In this document: positions 5,545 to 38,589 of the stretch, one piece after another
How the letters are laid out: the number at the start of each line of letters is the position of its first letter
Position numbering within the stretch: the first letter of the stretch is position 1
Assembly: GCA_963716205.1 (NCBI GenBank)
Contig: OY970290.1
Span: forward strand, 108,906-172,905
Reading direction: 5' to 3'
Source of the DNA: an uncultured bacterium
GTDB lineage: Bacteria; Patescibacteriota; Minisyncoccia; Phycocordibacterales; GWA1-40-21
Length of the DNA: 64,000 nt
Notes under the pieces: generated by a model
What the model saw: only the letters and a program-made list of their open reading frames with translations
Told to the model about the DNA's origin: nothing
Databases searched by the model: none
Made by a program: the position numbers and the translations under genes

Positions 5545-8322
5545 ATGGCAGAGACTTTTATTCCCGAAAAATTGGAGCAAAAATTCAAAAACCCGCAGGA
5601 GGAGCTGGAATTTTTGCGCGCGCAGGTAATGCAACATGAAAAAGCGCTTGCAGAAAGAAATGAAACTCCGCTTCATGATGAAGTCATTCATCATGAGCTC
5701 GCTATTCATGCGGACAGGAAAAAAGACGATGTACTCGACAAGGATTATGTTCTGAAAAATCATGAAACGGAAGCGATTGTACTTGATTTGTCGCCGGAGG
5801 AGCATGATGCGAAAATTGCCGAACTTATTACGATTTTACAGGAGAAAGGCATTCTCAATACTCTTGCCGTCGTGGAAAAAATGAAAGATTCCCACGTGGA
5901 AGATGATTTTCAGCGATTTCTTGTCCAATACATCAAATCCGGTTTTTCTGTCGGAAAAAATGAAAAAGGTCCGGTCTGGCGCGCGCTTCACATGACCTTG
6001 TTTGAAGTTTCGCTTCCGGGAATTGCAAAAGACGACACGCAAAAAGGAAAGCATTTGAAGGAGCTTATTTCGAAAATGGAACAGTTTTATGCCGGCATGC
6101 TTTCCGTCGAATCAAATGATACCGACGGCGCGGGATATTTTTCGCTTGAGCTTGCGAGCGGAAATCATTCGAGCGAGATTATTTTTTATATCGCGGTGCC
6201 GGACGCAAAAAAATCGCTTTTTGAAAAACAGGCGCAGTCCATATTTCCCGATGTAAAAATCGTGGAGAAAAATGACGACTATAATATTTTCAATGAAGAA
6301 GGCGACTATGTCGGCTCGCAGGTGGAATTTCAGACGAATGATATTTTTCCGATAAAAACATACGGCGAATATGACTATGATCCGCTCAATGTTATTTTGA
6401 ACAGTTTTTCCAAAGTCGATAAAGACGGCGAGGGCGCTGCGATACAGATTATTGTTAAGCCAGCCAAATCGAAAACAATGAGTTTCTACAAGCGCGTGCT
6501 GAAAGAAATGGAAAAAGGTGACAAATTCAAAGATGCGCTCGAAAAAGCGGACTCATCGCTTTTCACGGTTTTGAAAGGAGTGGGAAAGGAACTCGTCAGT
6601 TCCGGTTCAAAAAAAGACGACAAAAAAACCGACAACACAGCTTCCAACCAAATGCCGATTGAACAAATCAAAAACAAAATCGCAAGCCCGCTTGTCAATA
6701 TCAATATCCGCATCATGGCGAGCGCGGTGACAAGGGAAGAAGCTGCAGCAATTCTTTCCGACATTGAATCTGCGTTCAATCAGTTTGAAAATACCAACGG
6801 CAACAAATTTATTTTTGATCGCATTGAAGGCAAAAATCTCCTGAACATGACACGCGATTTTTCATTTAGGATTTTCAGCGAAAAGAGCGCACTCTCGCTT
6901 AATCTCAAAGAATTGACCACTGTGATGCACTTGCCGGAAGTTGATTTTGCAAATACATCAGCGCTCAAACAATCCGTGGCAAATACCGCGCCGGCACCGC
7001 TTGATCTGCCGCAAAAAGGAATTCTGCTCGGAGTGAACAAATACCGCAACATCGAAACTCCAATTCATATAACTCCCGAAGATCGCTTGCGGCATTTCTA
7101 TATCATCGGTCAGACCGGCACCGGTAAGACGACGCTTTTGAAGACGATGATCCGCCAGGATATTTTAGCCGGTGAAGGCGTCTGCATGATCGATCCGCAC
7201 GGAAGCGATATCCAAGAAGTGCTTTCATTCATCCCGCCGGAGCGATATAAAGATGTGATTTATTTTGATCCGAGCTATACCGAGCGACCGATGGGACTCA
7301 ACATGCTCGAATATGACAGAAGATTTCCGGAACAAAAAACATTCGTGGTGAATGAAATGCTTTCCATTTTCAATAAATTATTCGATATGAAAACCGCCGG
7401 CGGTCCGATGTTCGAGCAGTATTTCCGAAATGCCGTCATGCTGGTAATCGAAGATCCGGAAACCGGTTCGACACTTCTTGATGTTTCCCGCGTGCTTTCT
7501 GACAAGGTGTATCGCGAATTGAAATTGTCCAAATGTAAAAATCCGATTGTCATTCAATTTTGGCGCGAGATTGCGGGCAAAGCCGGCGGGGAAGCGTCAC
7601 TTGCAAATATTGTGCCATATATCACGAGCAAGTTTGATGTTTTTCTTTCCAATGAAATCATGCGGCCGATTGTTTCCCAGGAAAAGTCCGCGTTTGATTT
7701 CCGCGATATCATGGACAATAAAAAAATTCTTCTCGTCAATTTGGCAAAAGGAAGGCTTGGCGATATCAATTCCAATCTCATCGGCCTTATTATTGTTGGC
7801 AAGATTTTGATGGCGGCGCTTTCACGCACGGATTCATTTGGAGAAAACTTTCCACCGTTTTATCTCTATATTGATGAATTCCAAAATGTCACAACGGATT
7901 CAATCTCGACGATCTTATCCGAAGCGAGAAAATATAAACTCGCCCTTACCGTGGCGCACCAGTTCATTGCTCAGCTGGATGAAAAGATAAAAAATTCCGT
8001 TTTCGGAAATGTCGGCTCGATGGCGGTGTTCCGTGTCAGCTCGGAGGATTCGGAATATTTGGTCAAACAATTCGCGCCGGTATTTACCGCAAATGATCTG
8101 ATGAATATCGATAATCACAATTCGTATGTGAAGCTTCTTGCAAACGGCAGGCCGGCAAAGCCATTCTCTATGGAGACCAATTTGCCTCCGCGCGGCAACA
8201 AACTGTTGCTTGAAAAAATAAAAGAAATTTCGTATCTTGCGTATGGCAGAGACAGGGCAGAAGTTGAGGAAGAAATATTGGCAAAATATAAAAAGCCGGA
8301 GCCGGCAATGCCGAAAATATAA
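5545..8322 (+). CDS. FtsK/HerA/TraD-superfamily P-loop ATPase with an unknown N-terminal domain of about 500 aa
   Basis: Walker A IIGQTGTGKTTLL followed by IDPHGS (HerA/TrwB-like), Walker B YLYIDEFQ, then ARKYKLALTVAHQF. Paralogous to the ORF at 46978..48750. A TATAAT box lies about 11 nt before the ATG. Confidence 0.6.
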   Translation: MAETFIPEKLEQKFKNPQEELEFLRAQVMQHEKALAERNETPLHDEVIHHELAIHADRKKDDVLDKDYVLKNHETEAIVLDLSPEEHDAKIAELITILQEKGILNTLAVVEKMKDSHVEDDFQRFLVQYIKSGFSVGKNEKGPVWRALHMTLFEVSLPGIAKDDTQKGKHLKELISKMEQFYAGMLSVESNDTDGAGYFSLELASGNHSSEIIFYIAVPDAKKSLFEKQAQSIFPDVKIVEKNDDYNIFNEEGDYVGSQVEFQTNDIFPIKTYGEYDYDPLNVILNSFSKVDKDGEGAAIQIIVKPAKSKTMSFYKRVLKEMEKGDKFKDALEKADSSLFTVLKGVGKELVSSGSKKDDKKTDNTASNQMPIEQIKNKIASPLVNINIRIMASAVTREEAAAILSDIESAFNQFENTNGNKFIFDRIEGKNLLNMTRDFSFRIFSEKSALSLNLKELTTVMHLPEVDFANTSALKQSVANTAPAPLDLPQKGILLGVNKYRNIETPIHITPEDRLRHFYIIGQTGTGKTTLLKTMIRQDILAGEGVCMIDPHGSDIQEVLSFIPPERYKDVIYFDPSYTERPMGLNMLEYDRRFPEQKTFVVNEMLSIFNKLFDMKTAGGPMFEQYFRNAVMLVIEDPETGSTLLDVSRVLSDKVYRELKLSKCKNPIVIQFWREIAGKAGGEASLANIVPYITSKFDVFLSNEIMRPIVSQEKSAFDFRDIMDNKKILLVNLAKGRLGDINSNLIGLIIVGKILMAALSRTDSFGENFPPFYLYIDEFQNVTTDSISTILSEARKYKLALTVAHQFIAQLDEKIKNSVFGNVGSMAVFRVSSEDSEYLVKQFAPVFTANDLMNIDNHNSYVKLLANGRPAKPFSMETNLPPRGNKLLLEKIKEISYLAYGRDRAEVEEEILAKYKKPEPAMPKI

Positions 8323-10232: not shown

Positions 10233-13645
<3,413 letters not shown>

Positions 13646-13747
13646 AATTTAAAAAGTCACGTTCGCATGTTTTAACCTGTTATGTGAAATGAATTCAAAA
13701 AATATTTTTTTGAGTGATTTTCACAGTAGTTTGAGTTGAATTTTTTG

Positions 13748-13858
13748 TTCTGGTGCTTTGTCGCGGGTGTTACACCTGATCTCATTCCGAACTCAGCAGT
13801 TAAGCCCCGTTGAGGCGATGATACTCTCTCTGAAGGGGAAAGTAGCTAGGCGCCGGAA
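13748..13858 (+). rRNA. rrf: 5S ribosomal RNA
   Basis: CCTGATCTCATTCCGAACTCAGCAGTTAAGCCCCGTTGAGGCGATGATACTC matches the conserved 5S helix II-III/loop C region. It lies about 100 nt after the 23S 3' end. Confidence 0.8.
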
Positions 13859-13881
13859 CAAAGAATTGAACTCCTTGAATA

Positions 13882-13914
13882 AAAAAGAGCTCCCACAAAT
13901 GGGAGTTTTTTGCT
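13882..13914 (+). terminator. rho-independent terminator after the 5S rRNA
   Basis: GAGCTCCCACAAATGGGAGTTTTTTGC: a stem CTCCCA/TGGGAG followed by a T-run. Confidence 0.7.
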
Positions 13915-13940
13915 ATAATACGTTTCAATATTTAATTTTT

Positions 13941-14702
13941 ATGTCCTGGGCAAGCCGAAGAAAAACAACATATATACTTATTTTTTTCATCATCGTAATC
14001 GTTATTATCGCTGCCATCGCGTTTTTCTTTTTCTACAAACCAGCATCGTGTTTTGACGGCATTCAAAACGAAGGCGAGACAGGGATTGATTGCGGCGGGC
14101 CATGCGCCATGCTTTGCCGCGCAAATTATGCCAATCCGACTGTGCTGTGGACGCAGTGGTCAAAAGTGACGAGCTCTGGCACTTACAATCTTTTGGCGTA
14201 CGCTGAGAATCCAAACATCGGTGTCGGCGCTACAAATGTTCCGTATGAATTTAAAATCTACGATACCAACAATATTTTGCTTGATGATGAAAAAGGCACT
14301 GCTTCGATCCCGGCAAATAATAATTTCGTCGTCTTCGTGCCGGGCATCAATATTTTTGATAAAATTCCGGCGCGGATTGATTTTGCATTTTCAAATGCGA
14401 TTATCTGGCAAAAAATTCCGGATCTTGAACAGGGGATTAATCTGGTTTCAAGCACGCTGACAAACGAAGATACCGCGCCGAAATTATTCGCTACATTGCA
14501 AAATACCACCGTAAGCACTATAAATAATATTCAGTCCGTGGCTATTATCTATGATCAAAACAACAATGCAATCGCCTTTTCAAAAACCGTGACGGATTCA
14601 ATCGGTCCGAATGCAAGCGCCAATATCGTTTTTACCTGGCCAGAGCCATTTTCCGCGCCGGTCTACAAGACCGATATTATTTCCCAGGTTTTATCCCAAT
14701 AA
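13941..14702 (+). CDS. membrane-anchored Cys-containing extracytoplasmic protein of unknown function, immediately upstream of the SEDS gene
   Basis: The track ORF 13758..14702 overlaps the 5S rRNA. The first ATG after the terminator (13941) gives MSWASRRKTTYILIFFIIVIVIIAAIAFFFFYK (transmembrane anchor), then CFDGIQNEGETGIDCGGPCAMLC. It ends 6 nt before the rodA/ftsW-like gene. Confidence 0.5.
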   Translation: MSWASRRKTTYILIFFIIVIVIIAAIAFFFFYKPASCFDGIQNEGETGIDCGGPCAMLCRANYANPTVLWTQWSKVTSSGTYNLLAYAENPNIGVGATNVPYEFKIYDTNNILLDDEKGTASIPANNNFVVFVPGINIFDKIPARIDFAFSNAIIWQKIPDLEQGINLVSSTLTNEDTAPKLFATLQNTTVSTINNIQSVAIIYDQNNNAIAFSKTVTDSIGPNASANIVFTWPEPFSAPVYKTDIISQVLSQ

Positions 14703-15872: not shown

Positions 15873-15911
15873 CACTCTTGATAATTTGTTTCTGATATTT
15901 TACAATATACA

Positions 15912-18900
15912 GTGATGAGACTGCAAAAAACATACAGATATACTGCATTTTCGCTGTTCGCTTTGTTTGTTTTTTTGCTTGCTTCCCGCTATGTTTCCGC
16001 TACTATTTATAATCCCGGTGAGACGCTCAATCCTGATTGCATAATGGGATCGAGTAATTGCGGAGTGGATCTTTTTTCTTCATTTATTCCTTATACCGGA
16101 GCGACAACGACCATCGATCTCAACAGTCAATTACTTACCAATGTCAGTGCTTTGAATGTTACAAGTACGACAACAATCGGTCAATCGGTCCTTATAACTT
16201 CTGGAAATCCTGATGGAATCGGTACCTCCTCTCAAGATACCGGAAGTAATTTACTTGCAGAAGGAAGTATTTATGATTTTCATATTTACTCTTATAGAAT
16301 GGTGAATGGTGTACAAGTTTTTTCTCAAAACTACACGGACATTCCATTTACTGATGATAATCTTGGCGGAACTTATAGTATTGGATTGACGTGGGACACG
16401 GTGCCGGGAGTGAGCGGATATAGAGTGGTAATCGTTCGAGATGACGAGGATGCTTATTACAGCGATCATTCAATAGATACTACAAATGATACGATTGAAT
16501 ATGATGGACTTACCGATGTTAATCCGACCAGTAATGTAAGCCCGTCTTCTTATGTGTATTCTTCCGGCGGTTTTTTACAAGTTGATGGTTCAGGCAGCAT
16601 AGCAGGCAATGTAACCATCAATAATGATCTTACGAGCGCGACAACAAAACCGGCGACCGCTCTGACCGTTTCAGGGACAATTTTTAATGATATTGGCAAT
16701 TCATCCCAGATTTCTCAGATCGCCACCACATCTGTTGGAAATGATCCGCAAGGAATTGCTATTTCCGGCAAATATTTATATGTAACGAATCAAAATGATA
16801 ACACCTTGTCTGTTGTTAATATTTCGGATCCTCATCATCCAATACAGATTGCCACAACTTCTGTTCCCAATGGTCCCAATCATATTGTTGTTTCAGGTAA
16901 TTACTTATATATAGGTCTTGATGGAGGTTCCGGTCACATTCCCACGTGTACCTCCGGAGAAGATTGTGTAGCTATTATAGATGTTTCAAATCATTTTTAC
17001 CCAATAATAACCGCTATTGTTAATGTCGGGGAGGGTCCATACGATATCGCTATTTCTGGAAAATATCTTTATGCGGTTAATAATGTTGGCCACGCCATCT
17101 CTATAACAGATATTTCAAATCCTTATAATCCTTTTAACATCGCCTCCTTATCTGTTGGAAACACACCAAACGGTATTGTTATATCCAGTCACTATGCTTA
17201 TATAACTGACACAAATAACAATGATATTTATACTGTTGATATTTCAAATCCGTATCATCCAGTGCAAATTGCCACAACCTCGGTTGGAAATAATCCTTTA
17301 GGTGTTGCGATTTCAGCTCCATATCTTTATGTAGTTAATGAAAGTGACAATGATATTTCTATTGTTGATATTTCAAATCCGTATCATCCAGTGCAAATTG
17401 CCACCACTTCCACGTTATTTGGTACTTCAATTGGCGGTGATCCTGAAAATATTGTTGTCTCTGGCCGATATGCTTATGTAACGAATCCAATCGGTAATAC
17501 TTTCTCGGTTATAGATGTTTCGAATCCTTATTATCCGATACCGATTGCTGATACTATAGTCGGAAATTCTCCAAATAATCTTGCTGTTTCAGGAAAATAT
17601 GGCTATACAGTTAATACAAATGACGGTACCATTTCAGTCATTGATCTTGGAGGTATTGATACAGGGAATCTTTCAGCCGGTGCACTTGAAGCAGGAAATA
17701 TAAATGTCGACAATAATATTGATGTTGCGGGTTCCGTAAATATCGGCACTGCGCTTTCTGTTGGAGCTGGAGGAATTCTTTCCAACGGAGATCTTTCGGT
17801 AAACGGCACAACCACCACTTCAGGCTTGAAGATTTCAAATCTTTCAAACACTTTCCTTGCAGTTGACGCAGATGGAAATGTTATAGCTGCTTCATCATCG
17901 TTTTCACGTGTTTTTATTTACGCTTCAAGTTTGCCAGGTATTCATGACAATTCAAACCTAACAACTGGTGGTGGTACGGACGATACTGCGGTTTTGCAAT
18001 CAGCCATTAATAATATTTCTTCATACGGCGGCGGAACACTCGTTATTGACGGTGTTTTTCTTGTTTCTGGTTTGGTCGTTCCAAGCAATATCACGATTGA
18101 AGGCCTCGGATGGAATACGGGCTTCTATCGATCAAACTATGCCGATGTTCCGATTATCAGAAATGCAGACCCGTCGACCACTACAGTTATGGACAAAAAC
18201 ATTCAGATGATCAACTTTGCCGTAAACGCCAACGGAGGTAATCAAAATGGTTGCCCGCTTTTGACTGAGGGTGATTACTTCGTCCAAGGTATTGCCATGT
18301 ATGGCGTAGATAATGTAACCCTCGATAATTTGCATTTCATTAATACCAACGAAGTCGTCAGCAATTTCACTGGTGCTATAGCGGGTTGTAGTGCAGATAA
18401 CGACTCAAATTATAATTACGCGTTTTTCTTTAGTAACTGGTCTAATATTACCGTTGAAAACAGTTATATTGAACAAGGTATGCTTTCCGGAAATGATGGA
18501 ATACATTTTATCGGCTCAGGAAATAACGCAATCATCAAAAATGTAAGAGGTTACAGCGGTGATGATTTCATAGCTTTTAATAGCAGTGATTATCATGACT
18601 ATTCAAGTCCTAATTCCCCTAGCTGGGTTATTGAGGATGGTCCACAATCAAACATTTTGGTTGATGGAGTTAACCTTCAGAATTCAACAGAAGGAATTTC
18701 TTTCTTGAGTGGTTACGATATCTCAAATGTTCGTGTCGAGAATATTACAGGTACAACGACTGCAGAAACCATACATTTCTGGAACTGGTATGGCGGTAGC
18801 GGTTCAGTCAAAGATATTATTTTTGACAATGTGAATGCTGTGAGCACAGGAGATTATGTTTTTAAGATGGAAGTCGGCTCGAGAATTGATAACATGCAAA

Positions 18901-21122
18901 TTTCAAATTCTAGATGGGAAAACCAAATAGCGAACGGTCCATCATGGATAGGTGTTGATGGGACTGTTATTAATGATTTGCAAATAAACAATATGATCGT
19001 TGATGAGCCAACAACCGGAACGGATGCAGAGTCTTTAATTGGTTTAGTTGGCAGCAGTGCCTCAATCGGATCACTTGCAATTAACGGTCTTGATTGGGAA
19101 CGACCATCGGGTTCGAATCCAGCGGGTTACTATATTCTATCCGGAAATGGAGCAATTAACAGCACATCTATTGCTGATATTAACATTCCGCTTTTGAGCG
19201 GAATTGCCGAAAGTACTTTAACTATATCTACAAATCAAACAACTATGGGTGGCAGTTTGGTTGTTCCTGGATCTGTTTCAATTGGTAACAATGCACTTTT
19301 TCTCCAAGCTGGAAGTATTATGTCAACAGGAACAATGGCAATTGATGCGACGAATATTGGTATCAATACAGCTAATCCCGCAAATACACTTGATGTGAAC
19401 GGTACATTCGATGTCTCTATTCCTTTAGTAACTGAAACAGGGGCAATGGTCAGTACAAACGGCACTGATACCGTCCTTACTTATAATGGTTCTGGAACAT
19501 TTGATCCGGGAGCGTATGTAAGCGAGGTACAAGTTTTAGTTGTCGGAGGAGGGGGCGGAGGAGGAGCAAAAAGAGCGGGCGGCGGCGGCGGCGGCGGAGT
19601 TATTTATGATGCAACACATTCAGTTACAAATAATATATATACAATTACAGTTGGGGCTGGCGGAGCCAGAGACACAACAGAAAATGGCGGCTCAAATGGA
19701 TCAAATTCCATATTTGATAATTTAACCGCTATTGGTGGTGGTGGAGGAGGAGGAGATAATTCTAATGATGGTCATAACGGTGGCTCAGGCGGCGGCGGTG
19801 GTGCGGATAATGGCATTGGTACCGGAGGTTCTGGCACTATTGGTCAAGGAAACAATGGGGGCAGTGGTAATACAGCTGGAGAAGGTGGCGGAGGTGGTGG
19901 TGGTGCAGGCGGGGTTGGGGTGGCCAGTACAACTTACGGCATGGGTGGAAATGGCGGAAACGGCATTTTAAACTCAATCACAGGAACATCTACTTATTAT
20001 GGAGGTGGCGGAGGTGGCGGAGGTTTCTCAAGTGGTTATGCTGGAGGTATTGGAGGAGAAGGCGGCGGCGGAGCCGGTTCAGAGTCAAGCGGAGTTTCTG
20101 GTTTGAATGGAACAGATGGCTTAGGTGGTGGAGGTGGCGGAGGAAATGATTCAGCTGATGGAGGGACTGGCGGCAGGGGTGTGGTAATTATTTCATATCC
20201 AACAAATGATACTGCGATCAAAGCACTTACTATTATGAATTCTGGCAACATCGGCATCGGCACCACCACACCATCAGCCACTCTAACCATCGTCGGCAAT
20301 CCTGCAAGTACAACATTAAGACTTGCGAATTTCGGCGCAGGAACTCTCATGACCGACAGTCTTGGAAACGTCTACGACAATTCCGATGAACGATTAAAGA
20401 ATATTATCGGTACCTCAACCATCGGTCTTAACGAACTCGAAGGATTAACTCCCATCAACTACTATTGGAATGCCACCTCCGGTCTTGATATGACAGATGA
20501 AAACACCGGCTTTTCCGCACAGAATGTAGAGCAATATATTCCAAACGCAGTCGCCACCGATACACGAGGCTACTTAACTCTTCAAGATCGTCCGATCATT
20601 GCGGCACTCGTCAATGCGGTGAAAGAAATCGGATCATTCATCAGTACTATTGGAAATGGTCTTGCTCACCTGACCGGTATTGCTATCGGCACTTCCGACA
20701 AACCGGAGGGGATTACGATGTATGACGAGTCTACGGGACAGCCGTATTGCGTTGTCATTAATAATGGAATTTTGGTTAATAATCCGGGTGAGTGTACGAC
20801 AAAAAATTCATCGGTAGGCACGTCAGTAAGCACGACTGAAAGTATCACTACTACTTCAACGGATGAAATACCGGTTGAAAATTCTTCATCAAGTTCTACT
20901 CCGGCGACAAACACTCCCGATATCGCGAGTTCAACTGAATCCGCCTCATCCACCCAATCCATAACGGGCACTGATGCTTCCACAACTCCACAAGTATCAA
21001 CAAGTACTTCTGCTCTTGCGACAACAACACTCGAAGATATCATCGCTACGACAACTGAAAACACGGCTTCGTCGTCCGATGAGACTGATGCAACGAATAC
21101 GGCAACAAGCACCGGATCGTAA
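15912..21122 (+). CDS. giant secreted fibre-like protein 1 (1736 aa)
   Basis: N-terminal hydrophobic signal/anchor plus a conserved IYNPGETLNPDC.MGSSNCG motif. About 8 repeats of ISNPYHPVQIATTSVGN.P.G.A.S..Y.YV (LVIVD/beta-propeller-like, nt about 16660-17620). A PF12708-like signature DDTAVLQSAINNISSYGGGTLVIDGVFLVSGLVVPSNITIEG (nt about 17980-19060). A poly-Gly region (nt about 19540-20170). A C-terminal module with [12 protein letters not shown]...[10 protein letters not shown]...[15 protein letters not shown]...[18 protein letters not shown] that matches the endosialidase / tail-fibre intramolecular chaperone (S74) pattern. A Ser/Thr-rich tail. Confidence 0.85.
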   Translation: MMRLQKTYRYTAFSLFALFVFLLASRYVSATIYNPGETLNPDCIMGSSNCGVDLFSSFIPYTGATTTIDLNSQLLTNVSALNVTSTTTIGQSVLITSGNPDGIGTSSQDTGSNLLAEGSIYDFHIYSYRMVNGVQVFSQNYTDIPFTDDNLGGTYSIGLTWDTVPGVSGYRVVIVRDDEDAYYSDHSIDTTNDTIEYDGLTDVNPTSNVSPSSYVYSSGGFLQVDGSGSIAGNVTINNDLTSATTKPATALTVSGTIFNDIGNSSQISQIATTSVGNDPQGIAISGKYLYVTNQNDNTLSVVNISDPHHPIQIATTSVPNGPNHIVVSGNYLYIGLDGGSGHIPTCTSGEDCVAIIDVSNHFYPIITAIVNVGEGPYDIAISGKYLYAVNNVGHAISITDISNPYNPFNIASLSVGNTPNGIVISSHYAYITDTNNNDIYTVDISNPYHPVQIATTSVGNNPLGVAISAPYLYVVNESDNDISIVDISNPYHPVQIATTSTLFGTSIGGDPENIVVSGRYAYVTNPIGNTFSVIDVSNPYYPIPIADTIVGNSPNNLAVSGKYGYTVNTNDGTISVIDLGGIDTGNLSAGALEAGNINVDNNIDVAGSVNIGTALSVGAGGILSNGDLSVNGTTTTSGLKISNLSNTFLAVDADGNVIAASSSFSRVFIYASSLPGIHDNSNLTTGGGTDDTAVLQSAINNISSYGGGTLVIDGVFLVSGLVVPSNITIEGLGWNTGFYRSNYADVPIIRNADPSTTTVMDKNIQMINFAVNANGGNQNGCPLLTEGDYFVQGIAMYGVDNVTLDNLHFINTNEVVSNFTGAIAGCSADNDSNYNYAFFFSNWSNITVENSYIEQGMLSGNDGIHFIGSGNNAIIKNVRGYSGDDFIAFNSSDYHDYSSPNSPSWVIEDGPQSNILVDGVNLQNSTEGISFLSGYDISNVRVENITGTTTAETIHFWNWYGGSGSVKDIIFDNVNAVSTGDYVFKMEVGSRIDNMQISNSRWENQIANGPSWIGVDGTVINDLQINNMIVDEPTTGTDAESLIGLVGSSASIGSLAINGLDWERPSGSNPAGYYILSGNGAINSTSIADINIPLLSGIAESTLTISTNQTTMGGSLVVPGSVSIGNNALFLQAGSIMSTGTMAIDATNIGINTANPANTLDVNGTFDVSIPLVTETGAMVSTNGTDTVLTYNGSGTFDPGAYVSEVQVLVVGGGGGGGAKRAGGGGGGGVIYDATHSVTNNIYTITVGAGGARDTTENGGSNGSNSIFDNLTAIGGGGGGGDNSNDGHNGGSGGGGGADNGIGTGGSGTIGQGNNGGSGNTAGEGGGGGGGAGGVGVASTTYGMGGNGGNGILNSITGTSTYYGGGGGGGGFSSGYAGGIGGEGGGGAGSESSGVSGLNGTDGLGGGGGGGNDSADGGTGGRGVVIISYPTNDTAIKALTIMNSGNIGIGTTTPSATLTIVGNPASTTLRLANFGAGTLMTDSLGNVYDNSDERLKNIIGTSTIGLNELEGLTPINYYWNATSGLDMTDENTGFSAQNVEQYIPNAVATDTRGYLTLQDRPIIAALVNAVKEIGSFISTIGNGLAHLTGIAIGTSDKPEGITMYDESTGQPYCVVINNGILVNNPGECTTKNSSVGTSVSTTESITTTSTDEIPVENSSSSSTPATNTPDIASSTESASSTQSITGTDASTTPQVSTSTSALATTTLEDIIATTTENTASSSDETDATNTATSTGS
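17805..17895 (+). repeat. connector module (A/L)[10 protein letters not shown](K/N)[13 protein letters not shown](D/N)GNV(I/V)A, copy 1 of 3
   Basis: The same 30-35-aa module recurs at 23440..23555 and 24610..24725 inside giant protein 2. DNA identity is partial; codon usage differs. Confidence 0.6.
20251..20723 (+). repeat. 473-nt block encoding the intramolecular-chaperone module, copy A
   Basis: Almost identical to 25851..26323. The core (about 20385..20608 versus 25985..26208) is identical as far as I can read. The flanks differ only by synonymous third-position changes. Confidence 0.85.
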
Positions 21123-21178
21123 TTGATAATCTGATTTTTCTGTTCTATAATACATGTGAGTATTGCCAAGATTTTCAC

Positions 21179-24100
21179 ATGAACAGCAAACAAAAATTTC
21201 TTCAAACAAAGAGATTACGATACGCACTCTATATAGTGTTTTCGCTTTTATTTGTATTTTCTCTTCAAAGAGCTTTTGCTGATATTTACGCTCCGGGAGC
21301 GACGCTTAATCCGGACTGCACCATGGGTTCGGCAAATTGCGGGATAGATTTCAGTCTTTCTTCAAGTTCAGAACCTCTTTTTCTCGCAGCTTCTTCATCC
21401 CTTCTTTCTACCACGTCTGCTTCCGCACTGTATGTTCCATATACCGGAGCGAATCAAAACATTGATATTGGAACAAATAATTTGCTTGGAGACAATGTTC
21501 TTACTCTTCAATCTCCAAACGGATTTGCGTTTTCAGGAAACGCGACCGATAGTTTGGCGTTTGATTTGAATAACAGTGAAGTATTTTCGACTTTTAATAA
21601 TAGCAGTACAAACGCGAACGGCACGATTCAAGTTAATCCGGGTGACTTTGAAGCAAATTTTAACGATGGTTCAGGGAACAATGGAAATTTAGAGGTTTCA
21701 AATACCGGTGCCAATATAGATTTTTCTGATGGGAGCAATGGCAACGGAGGTTTCAGTTTAAATTCAGACGGAATGGATTATGGTTTTGGCAGTAGCGGCG
21801 GCGGAGGGGGTTTTGAAGTAAGCCCGGCATATTTTAGTTTTGATTCCGGTGACAGCAACAGTGATGATGTTGCTATTAACGTAGACAGCAGTGAGAGCTA
21901 CTCTTCATTTAATAATGGCAACGGAGCAAGTGGAAATCTTTTTGTTAATCCGGGTGACTTTGAGGCAAATTTTAACGATGGTTCAGGAAATTCCGGCAGT
22001 TTGAATGCCGCAAACAGCGAATTTGATTATCATGCCCAGACAAGCAACGGCATCGTTTCTGGTTTTGGAGACAATCAATCCAACTTTTTTATTGAAGACG
22101 CGAGCGGTACTAATAATTTCTTCATCGATCCGAATACGAGCAAAGGAAATACCATTCTCTCATCCGCGGGGAATATTGATTTTACTTCAAATGTAAGTAT
22201 TGGATCAATGATCAATACTAGCTCGAATGATAGCGTAAGCACCAGTTCAATATTAGGAATTCTCACTCCATCGGGGGCGTATACCGCTTTCGGAGATTCA
22301 ATCACGAATGGTTCGGGAGGATCACAACAATCTAATGCATACGTCAATTTGATATCCACAGATTTGGGAGTTACCAATCTGGTCAATTATGGATATCCGG
22401 GAGATTTTGCCTGCAATGTGGCGACGGAACAAGTTTTTCCGAATGAAAATCCGAATAATACTTCCAATCCCATTTATACTTTGATGGTAGGCACGAATGA
22501 AGCTATCAATAAAGGTGCGGGATCATACGAATCAGTATATGAAGCATGCGATCAAGCATCGCTTGCATGGCTTGCTGTTCCATCAGAGAATAAAGTATTC
22601 GGTACAAGCAGTTCAGTCGTACTTGCCGGATCATGGACTAATAGCAATACCTATACAACCGGCAGAGGCACATACCCAACCGTGGGAATCCAATCATCAA
22701 CCAACGGATCGGTGGCAACATTTCCGATCACGACGACCGGCGGACCAATTTATATTTGGTATCGTATTATTGATGGCAATGGCGGAACATTCACATACCA
22801 GCTTGATGGTGGATCGGCGGTATCAGAAAATGCATTTACCAATCCGGAAGTGGATGATAATAACAATGGCAATCAAGGCATTGCGCTTGCGAGAATCACA
22901 GGAGTTTCAGCCGGTTCCCATACTATTGCAATCACGGTTACTTCAGCCACCAATTCCGGCAATCTCGTGCCTATCATTGCGGTCGGTACTGCGCCGAGTA
23001 GTATTTCTTCCGGTTCACCGAAAGTTTTTCCTAGCGGCTTGATATATTATCAGGATGACGAGCTTTCAGCCTCAACTGCGGCATATAATGCTGACGCGCT
23101 TGCCGATGCAGATTTGCTTGCGGACGACGGTCTTCCCATTTATCCGGTCAATGTAAGAAATTATTTTACTATCGCATATGATGTTTCCGGAATATTCGGC
23201 GGACCGCATCCGAATGATCTCGGACACTCTCTCATACGAGATGCTTTTGAAGCGGAGATGCTGCAAGTCGCTGAGGATCTATCGACATCAAGTGAAAACA
23301 GTCTTTCTCTTCCATCCGTTGCATTTCAAGTATCTACCACAAGCAGTGCGGATGGTGTTGCCGATTTTATTTCATCTTCCGGACAGTCCGCACTCTATAT
23401 TGGAGCCGATGGAAATATCAGTATCGGCACCACCACTCCAACCACAGCGCTTTCTGTCATCGGCACGACAACGACAAGCGGTTTGAATATTTCAAATCTT
23501 TCAAACACTTTTCTCGCCGTTGATGCAAATGGAAATGTTGTTGCGACGACGAGTCCATCAGGCGGATCATCCCAATGGGCAACAACAAGTGTTGGTGTTG
23601 GTTATGATGTCCCGGGCATTTATTATAATATCGGCAATGTCGGCATCGGCACAACAAATCCGAACGATGAGCTTGTTGTTACCGGAACATCGACAACAGA
23701 TACCGTTGCATATTTTGGCGGTAATGCTGATATAGCTGGCAATGCTGTGATCGGTAATACAAACACTCTTGCTCAAGGTTTGTTTTTACTTGTCGGTCAC
23801 AGATACGCTCCTAATCTTCAGCAGATAAACATTGAGTCAAGCGATGACGGAATAAATTTCTCCGATTTTGAGCAAAATCCTATTTGGTCAAATCCTGACA
23901 ATGATTCTCCGGCCATTGCTGCTGCCCGAGACCCGTCCATTGTCTATTATCACAATATTTATTATATGGTTTATAGCGCAATACCGTATAATGGAGGCTT
24001 TGATTCGAATACTGTTTTTGGGCTGGCGACTTCTTCTGATTTGAAAAATTGGAATTTCGTCGGGGATATTTCCGTTACCTCAATCGGGACGGTGTATTGG

Positions 24101-26731
24101 ACATGGGCGCCTAGTTTGCTTGTTGATGCAAGTGGAAATTTGCACGTTTATGTTTCAGTTGCTCCTGATGGCAGCGATTCTACGTTCAGTATTTATGAAA
24201 TGCACCCGACAAATCCAAGTGCGACAACATGGTCTGTTCCAGCTCTCATGCTTGGAACAAATAAAATTGATGCGGATACAGTTTATAACAACGGAACATA
24301 TTATCTTTGGTATAAGAATGAAACGACAAAATATATCGAATATGCAACTTCTTCCTCGCCAACCGGCCCATTCACGGTGGCAGAGACAGGTAATTGGGCC
24401 GGGTGGGGAACAGGTTTTGAAGCTCCATGTCCGGTCCAGATCAGCGCCAATGATTGGAGAATTTATCTTGATGAATATCAGAACACGTCATTTATTCATT
24501 ACAGTGATTCATACGATAATTTTGCAACATGGACTGCTCCATTGCCGATATCCACGCCAATTCCTGATTTGGACAGTGTAAGCGTCATACGATTACGTGG
24601 TATTACCCCAAGCGCCGCGCTTTCTGTCATTGGTACAACCACGACATCAGGTCTCAATATTTCAAATCTTGCGAACGGTTTTCTTGCCGTTGATGCAAAT
24701 GGAAATGTTGTTGCGACGACATCAAGCGGTTCTCAATGGACAACAAATGGCTCCAATATTTATTATACGACTGGTAATGTCAGCATTGGCACCTCAACTC
24801 CCGGTTCCGCTCTTAGTGTGGATGGCGCTATTGATGCAACATCAATATTCAGTTCCAGCATAGGACTTTTGGGAAGTTCAATGCAACCGCTCACCGCAGA
24901 TATTATTGTCGTTGGCGGTGGTGGAGCAGGCAGTTCGGGCGGTGGCGGTGGCGGTGGTTTTATTGCCACCTCAACGGAGATTTCAGATGATCCGTATGTG
25001 GTAACGGTTGGAAACGGCGGAAGTGTTACCCATGGAAATGGTTATGATTCTATTTTTGGATCATTTGATGCGGTGGGAGGAGGAGCGGGAGCGGGTATTA
25101 ACTCGGGGAGTGGAGCTAATGGCGGTTCGGGTGGTGGCGGTGGTTCTACTTGCGGCGGTGGCCCAGTATCCGCTGGTGGTTTGGGAACAACAGGTCAGGG
25201 AAATAATGGTGGAAGTGCAGCTGCCGGAAATTGCATTGTGCCTTATACATCAGGCGGCGGCGGCGGAGCTGGAGCGGCGGGTCAAAATTCAACAGCAACC
25301 ACGAACGGAAACGGTGGAATCGGAACTACAAGTTCGATTACGGGAACCGTTACTTATTATTCAGGCGGCGGCGGCAGCGGAGATTATTACGGAACAGAAC
25401 CGTTCGGAACAGGCGGTCTTGGCGGCGGCGGCAATGGCGGAAATCCGGCAACGGCAGGAACGGCAAACACCGGCGGCGGCGGCGGCGGAACTATCAACGG
25501 CGGCACATCAGGCAATGGAGGTTCCGGTGTCGTTATAATAAAATACTTAACTTCCGCAGATGGCGATGGAACCGGAGGTATAATCACTCATGTCGGCGGT
25601 TACACCATTCATACATTTACATCAAGCGGAATATTCACACCTCCGCCCCCAAGTCCGGTAATATACAATATTACCTTAGACAACAATTTGTTCAGTTTTG
25701 AAAACGGAATCTCAGCACCGAATCTTGCTGTCGGCACAACATCGTCACCGATCACCCAATTCGATGTTTATGGTTCAAGTACAAATGATCTTGCCAACTT
25801 TGCTTCCTCTTCGGGACAATCCATTCTTTATATTACTTCGACCGGTAAAGTCGGCATCGGCACCACCACACCATCAGCTACTCTAACTATCGTCGGCAAT
25901 CCCGCAAGTACAACATTAAGACTTGCCAATTTCGGCGCAGGAACTCTCATGACCGACAGTCTTGGAAATGTCTATGATAATTCTGATGAACGATTAAAGA
26001 ATATTATCGGTACCTCAACCATCGGTCTTAACGAACTCGAAGGATTAACTCCCATCAACTACTATTGGAATGCCACCTCCGGTCTTGATATGACAGATGA
26101 AAACACCGGCTTTTCCGCACAGAATGTAGAGCAATATATTCCAAACGCAGTCGCCACCGATACACGAGGCTACTTAACTCTTCAAGATCGTCCGATCATT
26201 GCGGCACTTGTCAATGCGGTGAAAGAAATCGGATCGTTCATCAGTACTATCACGGACGGTATTGCACATCTCACCGGTATTGCTATCGGCACTTCCGACA
26301 AACCGGAAGGGATTACGATGTATAGTCCGAGTGGAAATGCATTTTGTATACAAGTTTCAGATACCGGACTGATTCAAAGTTCATCGGGAGAATGCAGCAA
26401 TGCAACCTCGACAATTTCTACCGCTTCAGTTGTTTCTTCAATCAGTCAAGCTTCTGATTCTTCAAATACATTAGCTACATCCACAGCTTCAACATCGGAT
26501 AATGTATTGCAGTCATCATCAACATCGGATGATGCAAGTTCTTCCGTTGCAACAACTTCCGATCAAGATACACCGGCAACTTCAACAAATACTACACTAA
26601 CTTCACCTATTGCAACAAGCACATCGGATCAAGCGACAACAACTTCCGATACTGATATAATCGCAACAACGTCTGAAAGCGCGACTTCGCCATCTGATAC
26701 CACGGATGCCGCGACAAGCACAGGTCAGTAA
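21179..26731 (+). CDS. giant secreted fibre-like protein 2 (1850 aa)
   Basis: Same N-terminal motif ([22 protein letters not shown]). SGNH hydrolase blocks: [14 protein letters not shown] and NDLGH (nt about 22250-23250). A GH43-like five-bladed propeller: [23 protein letters not shown] (nt about 23820-24570). A poly-Gly region (about 24900-25560). An S74-like C-terminal chaperone module nearly identical to that of protein 1, followed by a Ser/Thr-rich tail. Confidence 0.85.
25851..26323 (+). repeat. 473-nt block encoding the intramolecular-chaperone module, copy B
   Basis: See copy A. The offset between the copies is exactly 5600 nt. Confidence 0.85.
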
Positions 26732-26739: not shown

Positions 26740-28530
26740 TTGAATATGCGCATTACATTTTATAAATATTATTTTCTTTTTTTACTCTTCTTTTTTTTCA
26801 TTCCCGCAATTTCTTTTGCCAATACCGGTACAATCGGAAGCACAACAAATGCTGCATGGAGCAATGAAATCGGCTGGATAAATTTTGCGCCAACAAACGG
26901 GGGAGTAGTTGTGAACGATTCATCTTTGACTGGTTCGGCATGGTCTCAAGATTACGGCTGGATTAATTTTGCCCCGACGAACGGCGGCGTGACAAATGAC
27001 GGACAAGGGAATCTCGGAGGAACCGCATGGGGGGATAATGTTGGATGGATTAGTTTTTCTGGAGTGACAATCAATACGACAACAGGAAAATTTTCAGGAC
27101 AGGCTACGGGCACAATTATTGGAACACTGACATTTGATTGTACCAATTGCGATGTTGCAACTGATTGGAGACCGACAACGGTTACTCCACCACCGTCATC
27201 TGGTGGAGGCGGAGGTGGAGGCGGAGCGCCGGGAGCTGGCGGAACAGGTGGCGGCAGTTCTCCATCTCCGACACCTACCCCTTCTCCAACCCCAACACCT
27301 TCTCCAACTCCATCTCCGACACCTACCCCTGAACCTACACCAACCCCAACTCCTGTTCCATCTCCAACACCCTCGCCAACCCCATCCCCCACACCAACAC
27401 CAACGCCAACCCCAACTTCCGGACCAAGTATAACTTCTGTTATTAGCGGATCAATTTCATCCGTCGGTTCATTTATTACTTCAGCCGCAAATGGATTCAT
27501 TACCAATTTAAATACTATTTATAACAACGCTCCGGCCTCGATAAAAAATACCGTTACTGTTACGAAACAATTTGTCCAGACAAAAACCGGTTCAGCTATA
27601 ACAAAAACAATTTCAACAATCGGTGTTGTGACGGGCATTTCACTTCCCGTTGCTGTTGCAGCAACTTCATTTTCAGATTTATGGCTTATTTTTGTAAGAA
27701 TGTTCGGATTATTCTTTGAAATATTTGGTATTCGCAAAAAATCCCGTCCATGGGGCACGGTATATGATTCCATCACCAAGCGTCCGCTTGACCCCGTTCT
27801 TGTCACTCTCATCAATGTTGAAACAGATAAGCAGATCACTTCAGCCATTACGGATATCGATGGGCGATACGGATTTCTCGTTTCTCCCGGCACATATCGG
27901 ATTGAAGCCAGGAAAACCGATTACACATCTCCATCGCTCAAGATGAAAGGCAGATCATTTGATGAAGTCTATAATGATCTGTATTTTGGAGAAAATATAA
28001 CTGTTGTAAATGAGGAAGAAACAATTACCAAAAATATTCCTATGGATTCAATATCGTTCAACTGGAATGAATTTGCCAAGACAAAAATGGATGTGAATAA
28101 ATTTATTAAAGGCAGAGACATTACCTGGGCCCGCATTTCCAAATTCCTTTTTGTCATCGGAGCTCTCGTTGCACTCATTGCCGTTCTCATTGTTCCAGAA
28201 CCGTATAATTTTATTATCGCCGGATTCTACATTCTCGCATATATATTGAACTATGTGGTATTTACGACGAAGAAAGCCGGCACTCTGATAGAAAAATCCA
28301 CCAATTTGCCCCTCTCATTTGCCATTATCAATATTTTTCGAGAAGGTGAAACGGCTCCGTTCACTAAGAAAATCGCTGACAAGTTTGGCGATTATTACGC
28401 GCTGGTTCCCAAAGGCAGATATTATTTGAAAGTTGAAAAGAAAAATGACGATGAGACCTATACAGCTCTTTTCCAGACATCACTTTTTGATGTGAAAAAT
28501 GGAGTGATCAATGTCAATATTACGGGATAA
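26740..28530 (+). CDS. polytopic surface protein: signal peptide, three Trp-rich repeats, a Pro/Thr/Ser linker, transmembrane segments and a carboxypeptidase-regulatory-like beta-sandwich
   Basis: Repeats [36 protein letters not shown] and [30 protein letters not shown] linker. Several hydrophobic helices. The segment [57 protein letters not shown] resembles CarboxypepD_reg. Confidence 0.6.
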
Positions 28531-34103: not shown

Positions 34104-34394
34104 AGCAAAGCTGTCTTTTAATAAGGATACGCCATTTTTTTTCACTAAAAAACGGCGATATCCAACGTTGTTTTCTTAAATAACATTTAGGAGGCAGTGT
34201 TCATTTACAACCGAATAGTACAAGATTTAAAGATACATCATTTTTTACATGAGAATGATGTATGAGATAGTGCGAGTCTAGTCTCAAACTCTAAAATCGT
34301 TTCAAGTGAATTAAATAAATGAATTATAGAAATATTATTTTTTATTTTGTTCCGTTTCCGAAACAAATAATTCTTCAAAAGATTATTTTATTTT

Positions 34395-35900
34395 AGAGTT
34401 TGATCCTAGCTCAGGATGAACGCTGGCGGCGTGGATAGGGCATGCAAGTCAAGGGGACCGCAAGGTCACCGGCAGACGACATAGTATAAAATAGGTAACG
34501 ACCCCAAAAGTCAGGAATAGCTCGTCGAAAGACGGGGTAATACTTGATGGTCTGCATTTTCGCAAGAAGGTGCAGTAAAGATTTATCGCTTTTGGATCGG
34601 CCTGTTCGGTATCAGCTAGTTGGTAGGGTAATGGCCTACCAAGGCTATGACGCCTAGGGGAGCTGAGAGGCTGACCCCCACCGATGGGACTGAGACACGG
34701 CCCATACACCTACGGGTGGCTGCAGTCGAGAATATTCGACAATGGAGCGAAAGCTCTGATCGAGCGACGCCGCGTGGAGGATGAAGTCCTTCGGGACGTA
34801 AACTCCTTTTGTGAGACGAATAAGTTATTGAATGGTCTAAGAATAAGAGGTTGCTAAACTCGTGCCAGCAGCAGCGGTAATACGAGTGCCTCAAGCGTTA
34901 TCCGGAATTATTGGGCGTAAAGGGTGTGTAGGTGGTTTTGTTAGTCTTCTGTTAAATCTCTGGGCTTAACCCAGAGCATGCAGGGGAAACGGCAAGACTT
35001 GAGAGTATGCGAGGGGTCTGTGGAACTCATAGGTGTAGCGGTGAAATGCGTTGATATTATAGGGGAACACCAAAAGCGAAGGCAGCAGACTGGAGCATTA
35101 CTGACACTGAAACACGAAAGCGTGGGTAGCGAATGGGATTAGATACCCCAGTAGTCCACGCCCTAAACGATGTTCTCTAGGTTTTCGGAGTATCGACCCT
35201 CTGAGAGCCACAGCTAACGCGTTAAGAGAACCGCCTGGGTAGTACGACCGCAAGGTTAAAACTCAAAGGAATAGACGGGGACTTGCACAAGCGGAGGATC
35301 ATGTGGTTTAATTCGACGGTAAACGAAGAACCTTACCAGGGTTTGAAACCTAGCTGAAGTCTAGGTAGAAACATTTGACGTCTCACAAGGACAGCTAGGC
35401 AGGTGATGCATGGCCGTCGTCAGTTCGTGGTTTGAATTGTTCCCTTAAGTGGGGTAACGAACGCAACCCTCGTTGTCTGTTATATATGTCAGGCGAGACT
35501 GCCCAGCCTTTTGGATACGAAGTTCACGCTTCGCGGACAAGAGGCTGGGAGGAAGGTGAGGATGACGCCAGGTCAGCATGTCCCTTTGATACCCTGGGCT
35601 ACACACGTGATACAATGGCACGTACAACGCGATGCGACGCAGTAAGCTGGAGCAAATCGTAAGAAAGCGTGCCCAAGTTCGGATTGAGGTCTGCAACTCG
35701 ACCTCATGAAGCTGGAATCGCTAGTAATCGCGGGTCAGCCATACTGCGGTGAATACGTTCTCAAGTCTTGTACTCACCGCCCGTCAACTCAAGGGAGCTG
35801 GGAATACCCGAAACCAGCGCTTGTCGCTGTCTACGGTAAGTTCGGTGACAGGGAGTAAGTCGTAACAAGGCACGGCTAGCGGAAGCTGGTCGTGGAATTT
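34395..35900 (+). rRNA. rrs: 16S ribosomal RNA
   Basis: Starts AGAGTTTGATCCTAGCTCAG. Internal landmarks: GTGCCAGCAGCAGCGGTAATAC, ATTAGATACCC, AAACTCAAAGGAATAGACGG, GTACTCACCGCCCGTCA. The 3' region reads AAGTCGTAACAAGG followed by a helix 45 CACGGCTAGCGGAAGCTGGTCGTG and then GGAATTTTTC. No CCTCC was found, so the 3' end is uncertain. Confidence 0.9.
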
Positions 35901-36099
35901 TTCAAATCGAACACGCTATCGTCTGGAAGTTTCTAGATAGATGCTGATCGGTCGGTTTTCAATGCCTCAATTGAGCATTGAAAAGGTTGTATGTTCCTTC
36001 ATAACATACTATGCAGTGGGAAAGACTACACAAAGTCCGCCTTCGGGCGGACTAGGAAACGGAACAAAATAAAGAATGATATTTAGTATACAAAAAACA

Positions 36100-36728: not shown

Positions 36729-36805
36729 GCGCGATTAGCTCAGGTGGTTAGAGCGCGTCACTGATAATGACGAGGTCCCAAGTTCGAGTCTTGGATCGCG
36801 CACCA
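36729..36805 (+). tRNA. tRNA-Ile (anticodon GAU)
   Basis: Cloverleaf by eye: acceptor GCGCGAT/ATCGCGC; D-arm GCTCAGGTGGTTAGAGC; anticodon loop CTGATAA; T-arm CCAAGTTCGAGTCTTGG; the 3' CCA is encoded. Confidence 0.85.
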
Positions 36806-36852
36806 AGTAAGACATTTTTATTTTGCCTAAATTGTTGTATCATCAGCCGAAT

Positions 36853-38580: not shown

Positions 38581-38589
38581 ACTTTTATA

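Follow-up and report, generated by a model that had tools for sequence, protein, structure and literature searches.

A tandem gene pair in a Patescibacteria genome encodes putative secreted fibres assembled from phage-type receptor-binding parts

In the mosaic adhesive trimer (MAT) fibres of Bdellovibrio bacteriovorus, cleavage at the Ser of an SDxxxK motif, a surface location and glycan binding have been shown experimentally (Caulton et al. 2024, PMC10769870). In the S74 subgroup of MAT proteins, a signal peptide and a conserved N-terminal domain are followed by a stalk that is trimeric and by a terminal S74 domain containing SDxxxK; the published list of MAT-like proteins spans Oligoflexia, the PVC group, Micavibrio, Myxococcales, the FCB group and Omnitrophica, with no entry from the candidate phyla radiation (CPR) (PMC10769870). 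Among phage fibres, the glycine-rich domain of Pam3 gp24 has been described as recognising the host receptor (PMC9608196). How the ultrasmall CPR/Patescibacteria recognise and hold their hosts is described as largely unexplained (bioRxiv 10.1101/2024.11.25.624915); type IV pili are the main handle so far. Here we analyse two tandem genes, P1 and P2, in a stretch of 64,000 nucleotides from an uncultured bacterium (contig OY970290.1; 'the window'). We consider it reasonably probable that their products are modular fibres which a CPR bacterium exports by Sec and displays on its surface, made of phage receptor-binding parts and acting on the glycans of another cell.

P1 and P2 are co-directional open reading frames (ORFs) lying in tandem where the initial annotation had placed them (Table 1), and the database copies of both proteins (P0001 and P0019) are on one public contig of 681,747 bp. 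ORFs of 5.2 and 5.5 kb with matches as significant as those given below are far beyond chance. Each protein begins with a basic-hydrophobic signal, for which we predicted the signal-peptidase site by the AXA rule. Directly behind this site follows a motif of about 22 residues with two cysteines, which reads TIYNPGETLNPDCIMGSSNCGVD in P1 and is accompanied by a PYTGA..ID stretch. The initial annotation had quoted exactly this motif, and had proposed a plan of signal, Cys motif, heads, glycine-rich region, S74 module and Ser/Thr tail that we found in both proteins. The motif, which we call type 1, also follows the signal peptide in proteins P0002, P0015, P0017, P0088 and P0112 and in the fibres of loci L002, L004, L010-L012, L037, L042 and L151-L153. 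Pfam gave nothing significant for residues 1-270 of P1, and nothing in the NCBIfam scan reached its cut-offs. Beyond the signal, neither protein has a hydrophobic anchor, a C-terminal wall anchor or a transmembrane segment; P1 has one further short hydrophobic stretch, inside its β-helix. The composition of both is acidic, with few Lys and Arg residues. Of the sigma-70-like sites between 13.6 and 29.3 kb, the best two (15878-15906 and 21123-21151) lie exactly upstream of P1 and P2. As the first ends 8 nt ahead of the ATG at 15915, the P1 mRNA would be nearly leaderless. Overall, such sites are just as many as expected from shuffling, and we do not rely on this weak promoter evidence.

The Peptidase_S74 profile (PF13884, cut-off 22 bits) matches P1 with 35.0 and P2 with 34.7 bits over its full length (positions 1-57/58), and the match begins exactly at the Ser of an SDERLK motif. 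This motif aligns with SDERLK of the solved phage tail fibre 8jov, and its Ser and Lys are invariant across nine homologues (alignment A1). The modelled S74 part matches the ICA domain of MyRF, a known S74 member, with a probability of 1.00. These matches uphold the S74 chaperone module proposed for both C-terminal parts, whose self-cleavage is a prediction. The Ser/Thr tail is confirmed: Ser and Thr make up 48% and 53% of the last 120 residues of the two proteins. Between S74 and this tail of 110 residues lies a mini-domain with the pattern GITMYD..TG.PYC....NG.L....G.C; Pfam finds nothing significant in the post-S74 region. A block of 473 nt covering connector and S74 (20251-20723 and 25851-26323) is 93-100% identical between the genes, with sharp edges and flanks at background identity. 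This points to a recent gene conversion of the chaperone module only, while the heads differ.

The unit of about 45 residues that precedes the S74 Ser recurs along P1, P2 and their giant homologues, always between globular parts. Its motif, [IV]G[IL][GN]T..P...L, is present in 3-4 copies in P1 and 5-6 in P2, and such recurring connectors fit heads that would be strung on a repeated stalk unit. Each protein also contains a Gly_rich_2 domain (PF21722). In the model of the P1 domain, computed from a 21-row alignment, the first 250 residues have a predicted local distance difference test score (pLDDT) above 90 and almost no structure assigned by DSSP; we read it as a likely lattice of extended glycine strands. 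A Foldseek search of the PDB with this model returned the fibre of cyanophage Pam3 (E 2e-7), the tail tip of mycobacteriophage Bxb1 (4e-5) and the glycine-rich domain of ALK/LTK. Among predicted viral structures (BFVD), 229 matched it at E up to 1e-3; these belong to cyanophages, pelagiphages, haloviruses and algal viruses, and have 35-52% identity and a r.m.s. deviation of about 2 Å. What had been noted as a poly-Gly region is indeed present in each protein, but it is the glycine-lattice receptor-binding domain of phage fibres and not a linker.

P1 carries two heads. The first is a seven-bladed propeller, with seven LVIVD units counted by eye; it is a binding fold and has no enzyme signature. 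The second was predicted by AlphaFold as a right-handed parallel β-helix (pLDDT 85.7, predicted template modelling score 0.88). The top PDB matches of this model in Foldseek are the GH28 exopolygalacturonases 2uve and 2uvf (probability 1.00), and other best matches are the epimerase AlgE4, the adhesin PfbA and the tailspikes of phages HK620, Det7 and Sf6. A profile of the β-helix matches an exo-polygalacturonosidase (3e-10) as well as plant polygalacturonases (1e-15). Searching 1.84 billion representatives with index-free HMMER yielded 323 homologues, mostly proteins of 400-900 residues; the β-helix alone served as query, as a search with residues 595-1640 was swamped by poly-Gly words and gave only 14 matches. 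Among 43 aligned homologues, 27 match GH28 (PF00295), seven Beta_helix and four PF12708; the Asp in GNDG does not vary, and that in GDD hardly does. P1 itself does not match PF12708, either as the whole protein or in a segment scan at E up to 5. The propeller and the helix fold of the initial annotation therefore stand and its PF12708-like signature does not; 'GH28-like' is the better name for this pectin-lyase-fold β-helix related to GH28. Its membership of GH28 is incomplete, since fold and homologues match while the P1 sequence has no Pfam match of its own. Residues 595-1436 of P1 are matched by phrog_2295 at 2e-57, and tblastn of the same stretch against 50,697 GenBank phages gave no match.

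P2 has a different set of heads. After a repeat region (residues 40-365), for which Pfam gives nothing significant, comes an SGNH/GDSL segment that, searched alone, matches PF00657 (Lipase_GDSL) with 30.2 bits against a cut-off of 23.6; PF13472 (GDSL_2) stays below its cut-off on P2. Blocks I (GDS), III (GTNE) and V (HPN) are located around an insertion of about 150 residues, because of which the PF00657 match spans only the first half of the profile. Profile and block residues together place this segment in the SGNH/GDSL family, as had been suggested. The second head of P2 is a five-bladed propeller. GH32N matches it with 29.2 bits in the whole protein and 33.2 bits in the segment alone (cut-off 22.1), the solved GH159 galactofuranosidase Ch_Gaf159A (7zei) at 1e-6 and GH43 more weakly at 1e-3; phrog_18920, a 'tail protein', matches at 6e-27. 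A candidate Asp/Asp/Glu set was located by eye in RDP, IDAD and EAP; the assignment is profile-based and does not fix the family within the clan, so that the propeller type of the initial annotation holds, with GH43 as one candidate family beside GH32 and GH159. A carbohydrate-active head in each protein, as it had proposed, is likewise supported for P2, and for P1 through the β-helix but not through the LVIVD propeller. PHROG tail families match both proteins, and with the Pam3, Bxb1 and HK620/Sf6/Det7 fold matches they uphold the proposed kinship of parts of P1 and P2 with phage tail fibres.

Three enzyme-type heads (GH28-like, SGNH and GH43-like), a cleavable signal peptide and the lack of a C-terminal wall anchor or transmembrane segment would suit proteins that are freely secreted and degrade polysaccharides to scavenge sugars, with S74 serving trimer stability only and no role in attachment; that the β-helix homologues are mostly stand-alone proteins points the same way. 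We nevertheless consider this account unlikely. A phage-fibre receptor domain, an LVIVD propeller and several connectors would be costly for a simple exo-enzyme, and the N-terminal motif, itself conserved, is linked to a membrane protein from the adjacent gene (see below). Moreover, the expansion of the family in CPR with swapped heads is the pattern of receptor-binding proteins.

This expansion is seen in the relatives of P1. Its best hits, in Magasanikbacteria and other Patescibacteria, are 1-3 thousand residues long and contain LVIVD repeats, in many cases together with S74. One of them, P0003 (2688 residues), combines LVIVD, SGNH, GH43, Gly_rich_2 and S74 in a single chain, from which we conclude that heads are shuffled between genomes; head sets differ even between the close relatives P0002 and P0003. 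The nearest relatives come from metagenome-assembled genomes (MAGs) of the Microflora Danica type (L001, L004). A scan with alignment A2 (A1 being too diverse) located the C-terminal module at 70 loci in species-representative genomes, mostly Patescibacteria and often several per genome, with at least six loci in one Kaiserbacteria MAG and at least five in another Patescibacteria MAG; the remaining loci belong to Bacteroidota, Acidobacteriota, Bdellovibrionales and Omnitrophota. A second N-terminal module (type 2), (I/V).(Y/F)QGKL...LYD...GG..L(Y/W)T, was present in 34 of 120 hits, all of them giant LVIVD proteins (for example P0004-P0012 and P0105; loci L005, L015, L020 and L023), and may correspond to the MAT N-domain. 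A family that is expanded and shuffled between genomes in this way suggests that it tracks host range.

The neighbouring gene starts 9 nt after P2 and encodes a protein with a signal peptide and three GWINF repeats, followed by a Pro/Thr spacer, two transmembrane-like regions (residues 290-332 and 461-510) and CarboxypepD_reg-like domains. Pfam has no matching family for the repeats. The C-terminal module of transmembrane regions and CarboxypepD_reg is widespread in Patescibacteria, where it is joined to varying ectodomains (VWA, HYR, peptidoglycan-binding). Homologues in the closest loci are 57-72% identical. A GWINF gene adjoins a type-1 fibre in the window, L001, L002, L004, L012 and L059, and a fibre with a variant motif in L008. 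Among complete S74 ORFs, a GWINF neighbour was found for five of ten with the type-1 module (six of ten counting P1), none of ten with type 2 and two of 26 others; a type-2 module was never next to a GWINF gene in our sample. In the reverse direction, starting from five GWINF-type homologues on unrelated contigs, a fibre gene was directly adjacent in four: L151 and L153 have type-1 fibres with S74, and L152 a type-1 protein of 361 residues without S74. In total, GWINF genes directly adjoin fibre genes at about ten loci whose surroundings are otherwise different: FtsW in the window, for example, Peptidase_M50 and rpsL in L151 and L154, and in L004 a membrane protein unrelated to these. These adjacency counts are small and come partly from related genomes. 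We read the GWINF protein as a probable membrane-anchored, wall-spanning holder. In L155, a locus of a related genome, a diversity-generating retroelement pair (bAvd and reverse transcriptase, 6414-7803) lies about 2 kb from a GWINF-type gene.

The genes for ribosomal protein S5, SecY, Adk, Map and Ndk, then 23S and 5S rRNA and FtsW, precede P1, P2 and the GWINF gene; a pilin and a GT4 gene on the opposite strand, Bac_transf, SecD/F, an unlinked 16S rRNA gene and tRNAs follow. The unlinked rRNA genes, a small contig and best hits exclusively in Patescibacteria support a CPR-type organism, as had been supposed. FtsW, which lies 39 nt upstream of P1, together with the pilin, GT4 and Bac_transf genes and a polysaccharide cluster downstream, could make P1 and P2 parts of the cell's own envelope: an S-layer-like coat, or enzymes remodelling its own wall or surface glycans and linked to FtsW/SEDS, pilin and glycosyltransferases. 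The very acidic, Ser/Thr-rich composition would agree with this, and surface-layer proteins commonly carry LVIVD/YVTN propellers. Conservation of the upstream neighbour does not extend to the closest relatives, however: L004 has a different gene in this position, which led us to reject a functional link to FtsW. In other genomes, ribosomal and further housekeeping genes surround the fibre-GWINF pair, so that the envelope context of the window looks incidental, and the differing head sets of P0002 and P0003 would be unexpected in a housekeeping coat. We regard a role in the own envelope as distinctly improbable; the cell-envelope locus of the initial annotation exists here in its neighbours, but these are not conserved in relatives.

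The same surroundings bear on whether P1 and P2 could be fibres of a phage-derived particle encoded elsewhere (a prophage remnant, tailocin or extracellular contractile injection system) or cryptic phage genes. All conserved modules have phage counterparts, fibres of contractile injection systems with S74 domains are documented, and an integrated low-GC element lies about 10 kb downstream. Against this, Pfam and PHROGs gave no capsid, terminase, sheath, tube or baseplate family among the scanned ORFs of at least 150 residues in the 64-kb window (a selection of its ORFs), and the fibre genes sit between rRNA/FtsW and SecDF/16S. The locus is chromosomal and not a prophage, in agreement with the initial annotation. 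Virion fibres, being assembled in the cytoplasm, have no need of the Sec signal peptides that both proteins carry. The post-S74 mini-domain is included in the matches of the CPR loci L001-L007 and L021 (query residues up to 192-199), whereas none of the best 80 viral contig matches passes residue 163. The low-GC element is set apart by housekeeping genes, and its tested ORFs have no structural match. A phage-particle origin of this kind is highly improbable.

Returning to P1 and P2 as surface fibres directed at another cell, the domain identities, the intact catalytic motifs, the conservation of the gene pair and the chromosomal context are computed observations, and from these we infer trimerisation, cleavage, docking and target as follows. 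Once the signal peptide is removed, the conserved two-Cys motif would lie at the N-terminus of the mature protein. Acting as an intramolecular chaperone, the C-terminal S74 would nucleate a trimer and then cleave itself at the SDERLK Ser (S1491 in P1, S1602 in P2), releasing about 245 residues that comprise the chaperone, the two-Cys mini-domain and the Ser/Thr tail. The mature fibre would have about 1460 residues in P1 and about 1570 in P2, with the glycine-lattice receptor domain near its distal tip and the heads strung on the connectors of about 45 residues: the LVIVD propeller and GH28-like helix in P1, the SGNH deacetylase/esterase and GH43-type propeller in P2. Its N-terminus may be held at the cell surface, docked on the GWINF-repeat ectodomain of the membrane protein encoded downstream. 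In this position the fibres could bind, and locally cut or deacetylate, the surface polysaccharide of another cell, presumably the host, as phage tailspikes and MAT fibres do.

Several points weigh against this proposal. The S74 part of the model is moderately confident (pLDDT 40-80), and, unlike in phage and Bdellovibrio, the S74 region of about 105 residues is not terminal but has about 140 further residues behind it. The LVIVD propeller of P1 has no known activity. Searched alone, the P1 β-helix reaches no Pfam threshold and has no match even at E up to 5, and of the four GH28 motifs (NTD, G/QDD, G/SHG and RIK) only NxDG and GDD are recognisable, GHG and RIK not being found by eye. In P2, block V of the SGNH head has no Asp at the usual position three residues before the His. 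Four of the ten type-1 fibres have no GWINF neighbour, and the GWINF-adjacent fibre of L154 has S74 but a different N-terminus; docking of type-1 fibres on GWINF is proposed from gene adjacency only. The fibre shape is likewise derived from homology, and the episymbiont lifestyle is assumed from the phylum.

A bolder version of the proposal would make P1, P2 and the GWINF protein a two-part host-contact organelle of CPR bacteria derived from phage receptor-binding proteins, in which self-processing trimeric fibres with a phage-type receptor tip and exchangeable heads (depolymerase or deacetylase) are gripped at their two-Cys N-terminus by a wall-spanning GWINF dock and set which host is attached or opened. 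We offer this tentatively, as a possibility that we would not yet bet on. In either form, the genes are testable candidates for host contact, with a predicted self-cleavage site, three enzyme heads, a receptor tip and a candidate dock; for receptor tips of this type, phage work is now establishing the rules of specificity.

Table 1. Positions of P1, P2, their parts and the GWINF gene in the window, and of GWINF genes in other loci
Feature	Coordinates	Strand	Details
P1 gene	15912-21122	+	1736 codons from GTG; ATG at 15915 gives the 1735-aa database protein P0001
P1 signal peptide	15912-16001	+	aa 1-30; predicted cleavage between VSA and T; hydrophobic segment aa 10-33
P1 type-1 N-terminal two-Cys motif	16005-16070	+	IYNPGETLNPDCIMGSSNCGVD; directly after signal peptide
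P1 seven-bladed LVIVD/YVTN β-propeller	16713-17681	+	aa 268-590; Pfam LVIVD E 1.4e-25 and Lactonase seven-bladed propeller
P1 connector unit 1	17739-17903	+	aa 610-664
P1 GH28-like right-handed β-helix head	17904-19196	+	aa 665-1095; NxDG 18489-18506, GDD 18558-18575
P1 connector unit 2	19344-19481	+	aa 1145-1190; IGINTANPANTL
P1 Gly_rich_2 domain	19488-20207	+	aa 1193-1432; PF21722 4e-23
P1 terminal connector and Peptidase_S74 chaperone/autoprotease	20217-20705	+	aa 1436-1598; SDERLK 20382-20399
P1 predicted cleavage site	20382-20384 (Ser codon)	+	between N1490 and S1491
P1 post-S74 two-Cys mini-domain	20709-20795	+	GITMYDESTGQPYCVVINNGILVNNPGEC
P1 Ser/Thr-rich acidic tail	20796-21119	+	
P2 gene	21179-26731	+	1850 aa; database protein P0019
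P2 signal peptide and type-1 two-Cys motif	21179-21349	+	signal aa 1-34, predicted cleavage between AFA and D; motif aa 36-57
P2 Asn/Gly/Ser/Asp-rich repeat region	21476-22228	+	two 76-nt direct repeats, 21632-21707 and 21944-22019; no family match
P2 SGNH/GDSL esterase with inserted β-rich module	22274-23278	+	GDS 22289-22306, GTNE 22490-22501, HPN 23201-23218
P2 connector units	23390-23731	+	aa 738-851
P2 five-bladed GH43/GH32/GH159-type propeller	23816-24598	+	aa 880-1140; RDP 23924-23938, IDAD 24263-24280, EAP 24416-24430
P2 connector units	24605-24865	+	aa 1143-1229
P2 Gly_rich_2 domain	24893-25555	+	aa 1239-1459; PF21722 2e-15
P2 terminal connector and Peptidase_S74	25823-26305	+	aa 1549-1709; SDERLK 25982-25999; predicted cleavage between N1601 and S1602
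P2 post-S74 two-Cys mini-domain and Ser/Thr tail	26309-26728	+	mini-domain 26309-26395
GWINF partner gene	26740-28530	+	596 aa; signal peptide, three W..E.GWINF repeats with Cys pair
GWINF genes elsewhere (locus coordinates)	L001 10928-12619; L002 10663-12609; L004 11213-13633; L008 10680-11570; L012 6532-8070; L059 1228-2070; L151-L154 10001-~11900		

The window holds further features apart from the fibre locus. The 23S rRNA gene (10296-13646) is 3351 nt long against a model of 2925 positions, which implies one or more insertions. It is followed by the 5S gene (13749-13858), and the 16S gene (34388-35907) lies 20 kb away on the same strand, an unlinked arrangement common in CPR genomes. The mechanical start of the ORF at 13758-14702 overlaps the 5S gene; its product has a weak, sub-threshold match to the host-binding domain of WxL-interacting proteins. 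From about 36886 to 46000, GC content falls to 31-36% from about 43%. A serine recombinase gene on the minus strand (36886-38580), beside tRNA-Ile/tRNA-Leu (36729-36935), marks the start of this island about 10 kb downstream of the fibre genes. Its ORFs mostly have no family match; the only phage-like signals are a weak Rz-like spanin hit and a PHROG without assigned function. We take the island for a probable integrated mobile element unconnected to the fibre genes, with housekeeping genes in between. A LOOT RNA motif (Rfam RF03000; 88 bits, gathering threshold 46) at 41194-41318, within the island, overlaps the start of the ORF at 41261-41836. Two genes for TraG/VirD4/HerA-like coupling ATPases (weak matches to DUF87, TrwB and TraG-D_C) lie at 5545-8322, among housekeeping genes, and at 46957-48750, just past the island. 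A surface-polysaccharide cluster on the minus strand (48896-60633) encodes GT4 and GT2 glycosyltransferases, further ORFs and a Wzx-like flippase, and is followed on the plus strand by a Wzy_C/O-antigen-ligase-like protein with TPR repeats.

With respect to known systems, the initial annotation had called the architecture undescribed, which was an overstatement: MAT fibres follow the same logic, and the Prokaryotic Genome Annotation Pipeline (PGAP) already labels CPR homologues as tail fibre proteins. Entries from Magasanikbacteria and further Patescibacteria that PGAP names 'tail fiber domain-containing protein' or 'beta-propeller fold lactonase family protein' are direct homologues, 1-3 thousand residues long and with LVIVD with or without S74. 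These names are automatic, and we found no paper analysing the proteins, nor one linking S74, intramolecular chaperones or tail fibres with surface proteins of CPR/Patescibacteria.

Phages provide the second comparison. SGNH esterases occur in deacetylating tailspikes. As in the S74 fibres and tailspikes of phages, such as the K1F endosialidase and T5 pb1, P1 and P2 have the S74 Ser-Lys dyad and a preceding IGIGT..P motif. Enzymatic heads inside the fibre are another shared trait, the propeller recalling endosialidase and the β-helix the tailspikes of HK620, Sf6 and P22. Unlike these phage proteins, P1 and P2 are not viral, are Sec-exported, have no virion-adaptor N-terminus and do not end with S74; they are also about three times longer and have two heads each. 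The fold of their glycine-rich domain is that of the Pam3 gp24 and phage S16 gp38 tips (TNF-like plus glycine-rich lattice), and in the mature protein it, too, would be placed close to the distal end. In P1 and P2 the domain is followed in cis by S74, whereas Pam3 gp24 depends on gp25 as a separate chaperone (PMC9608196).

The resemblance to MAT fibres extends along the chain. Both families are cellular and multi-copy. Their members carry a signal peptide, directly behind which lies a conserved module, and end in distal domains that are swapped and an S74 with SDxxxK towards the C-terminus. Gly/Pro loop motifs recur along the long stalk of MAT (V-G-G/N-x-x-x-P-x-x-x-L) and the putative one of P1/P2 ([IV]G[IL][GN]T..P...L); the latter motif is similar to the capping-loop motif known from MAT fibres and other S74 proteins. 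MAT fibres belong to a bacterium that lives on other bacteria, and we count the same for the P1/P2 organism, whose lifestyle is assumed from its phylum. There are equally clear differences. The N-terminal module of P1 and P2 is a short two-Cys motif, compared (by description) with the β-rich domain of about 130 residues in MAT, and enzyme heads, an LVIVD propeller and the phage Gly-rich domain are placed along the fibre instead of a single adhesive tip. P1 and P2 further have the extra two-Cys mini-domain and Ser/Thr tail after S74 and a conserved neighbouring membrane protein. The phylum is another one, and the organism is of the monoderm type with no periplasm-invading lifestyle, as assumed from the phylum. 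The CPR version differs from MAT in five ways: the N-terminal module, several heads per chain, Gly-rich domain and S74 in cis, the post-S74 extension and the membrane partner. If P1 and P2 are the fibres we take them to be, they extend the idea from Bdellovibrio, that bacteria living on bacteria reuse the receptor-binding hardware of phages, to a second, very distant lineage.

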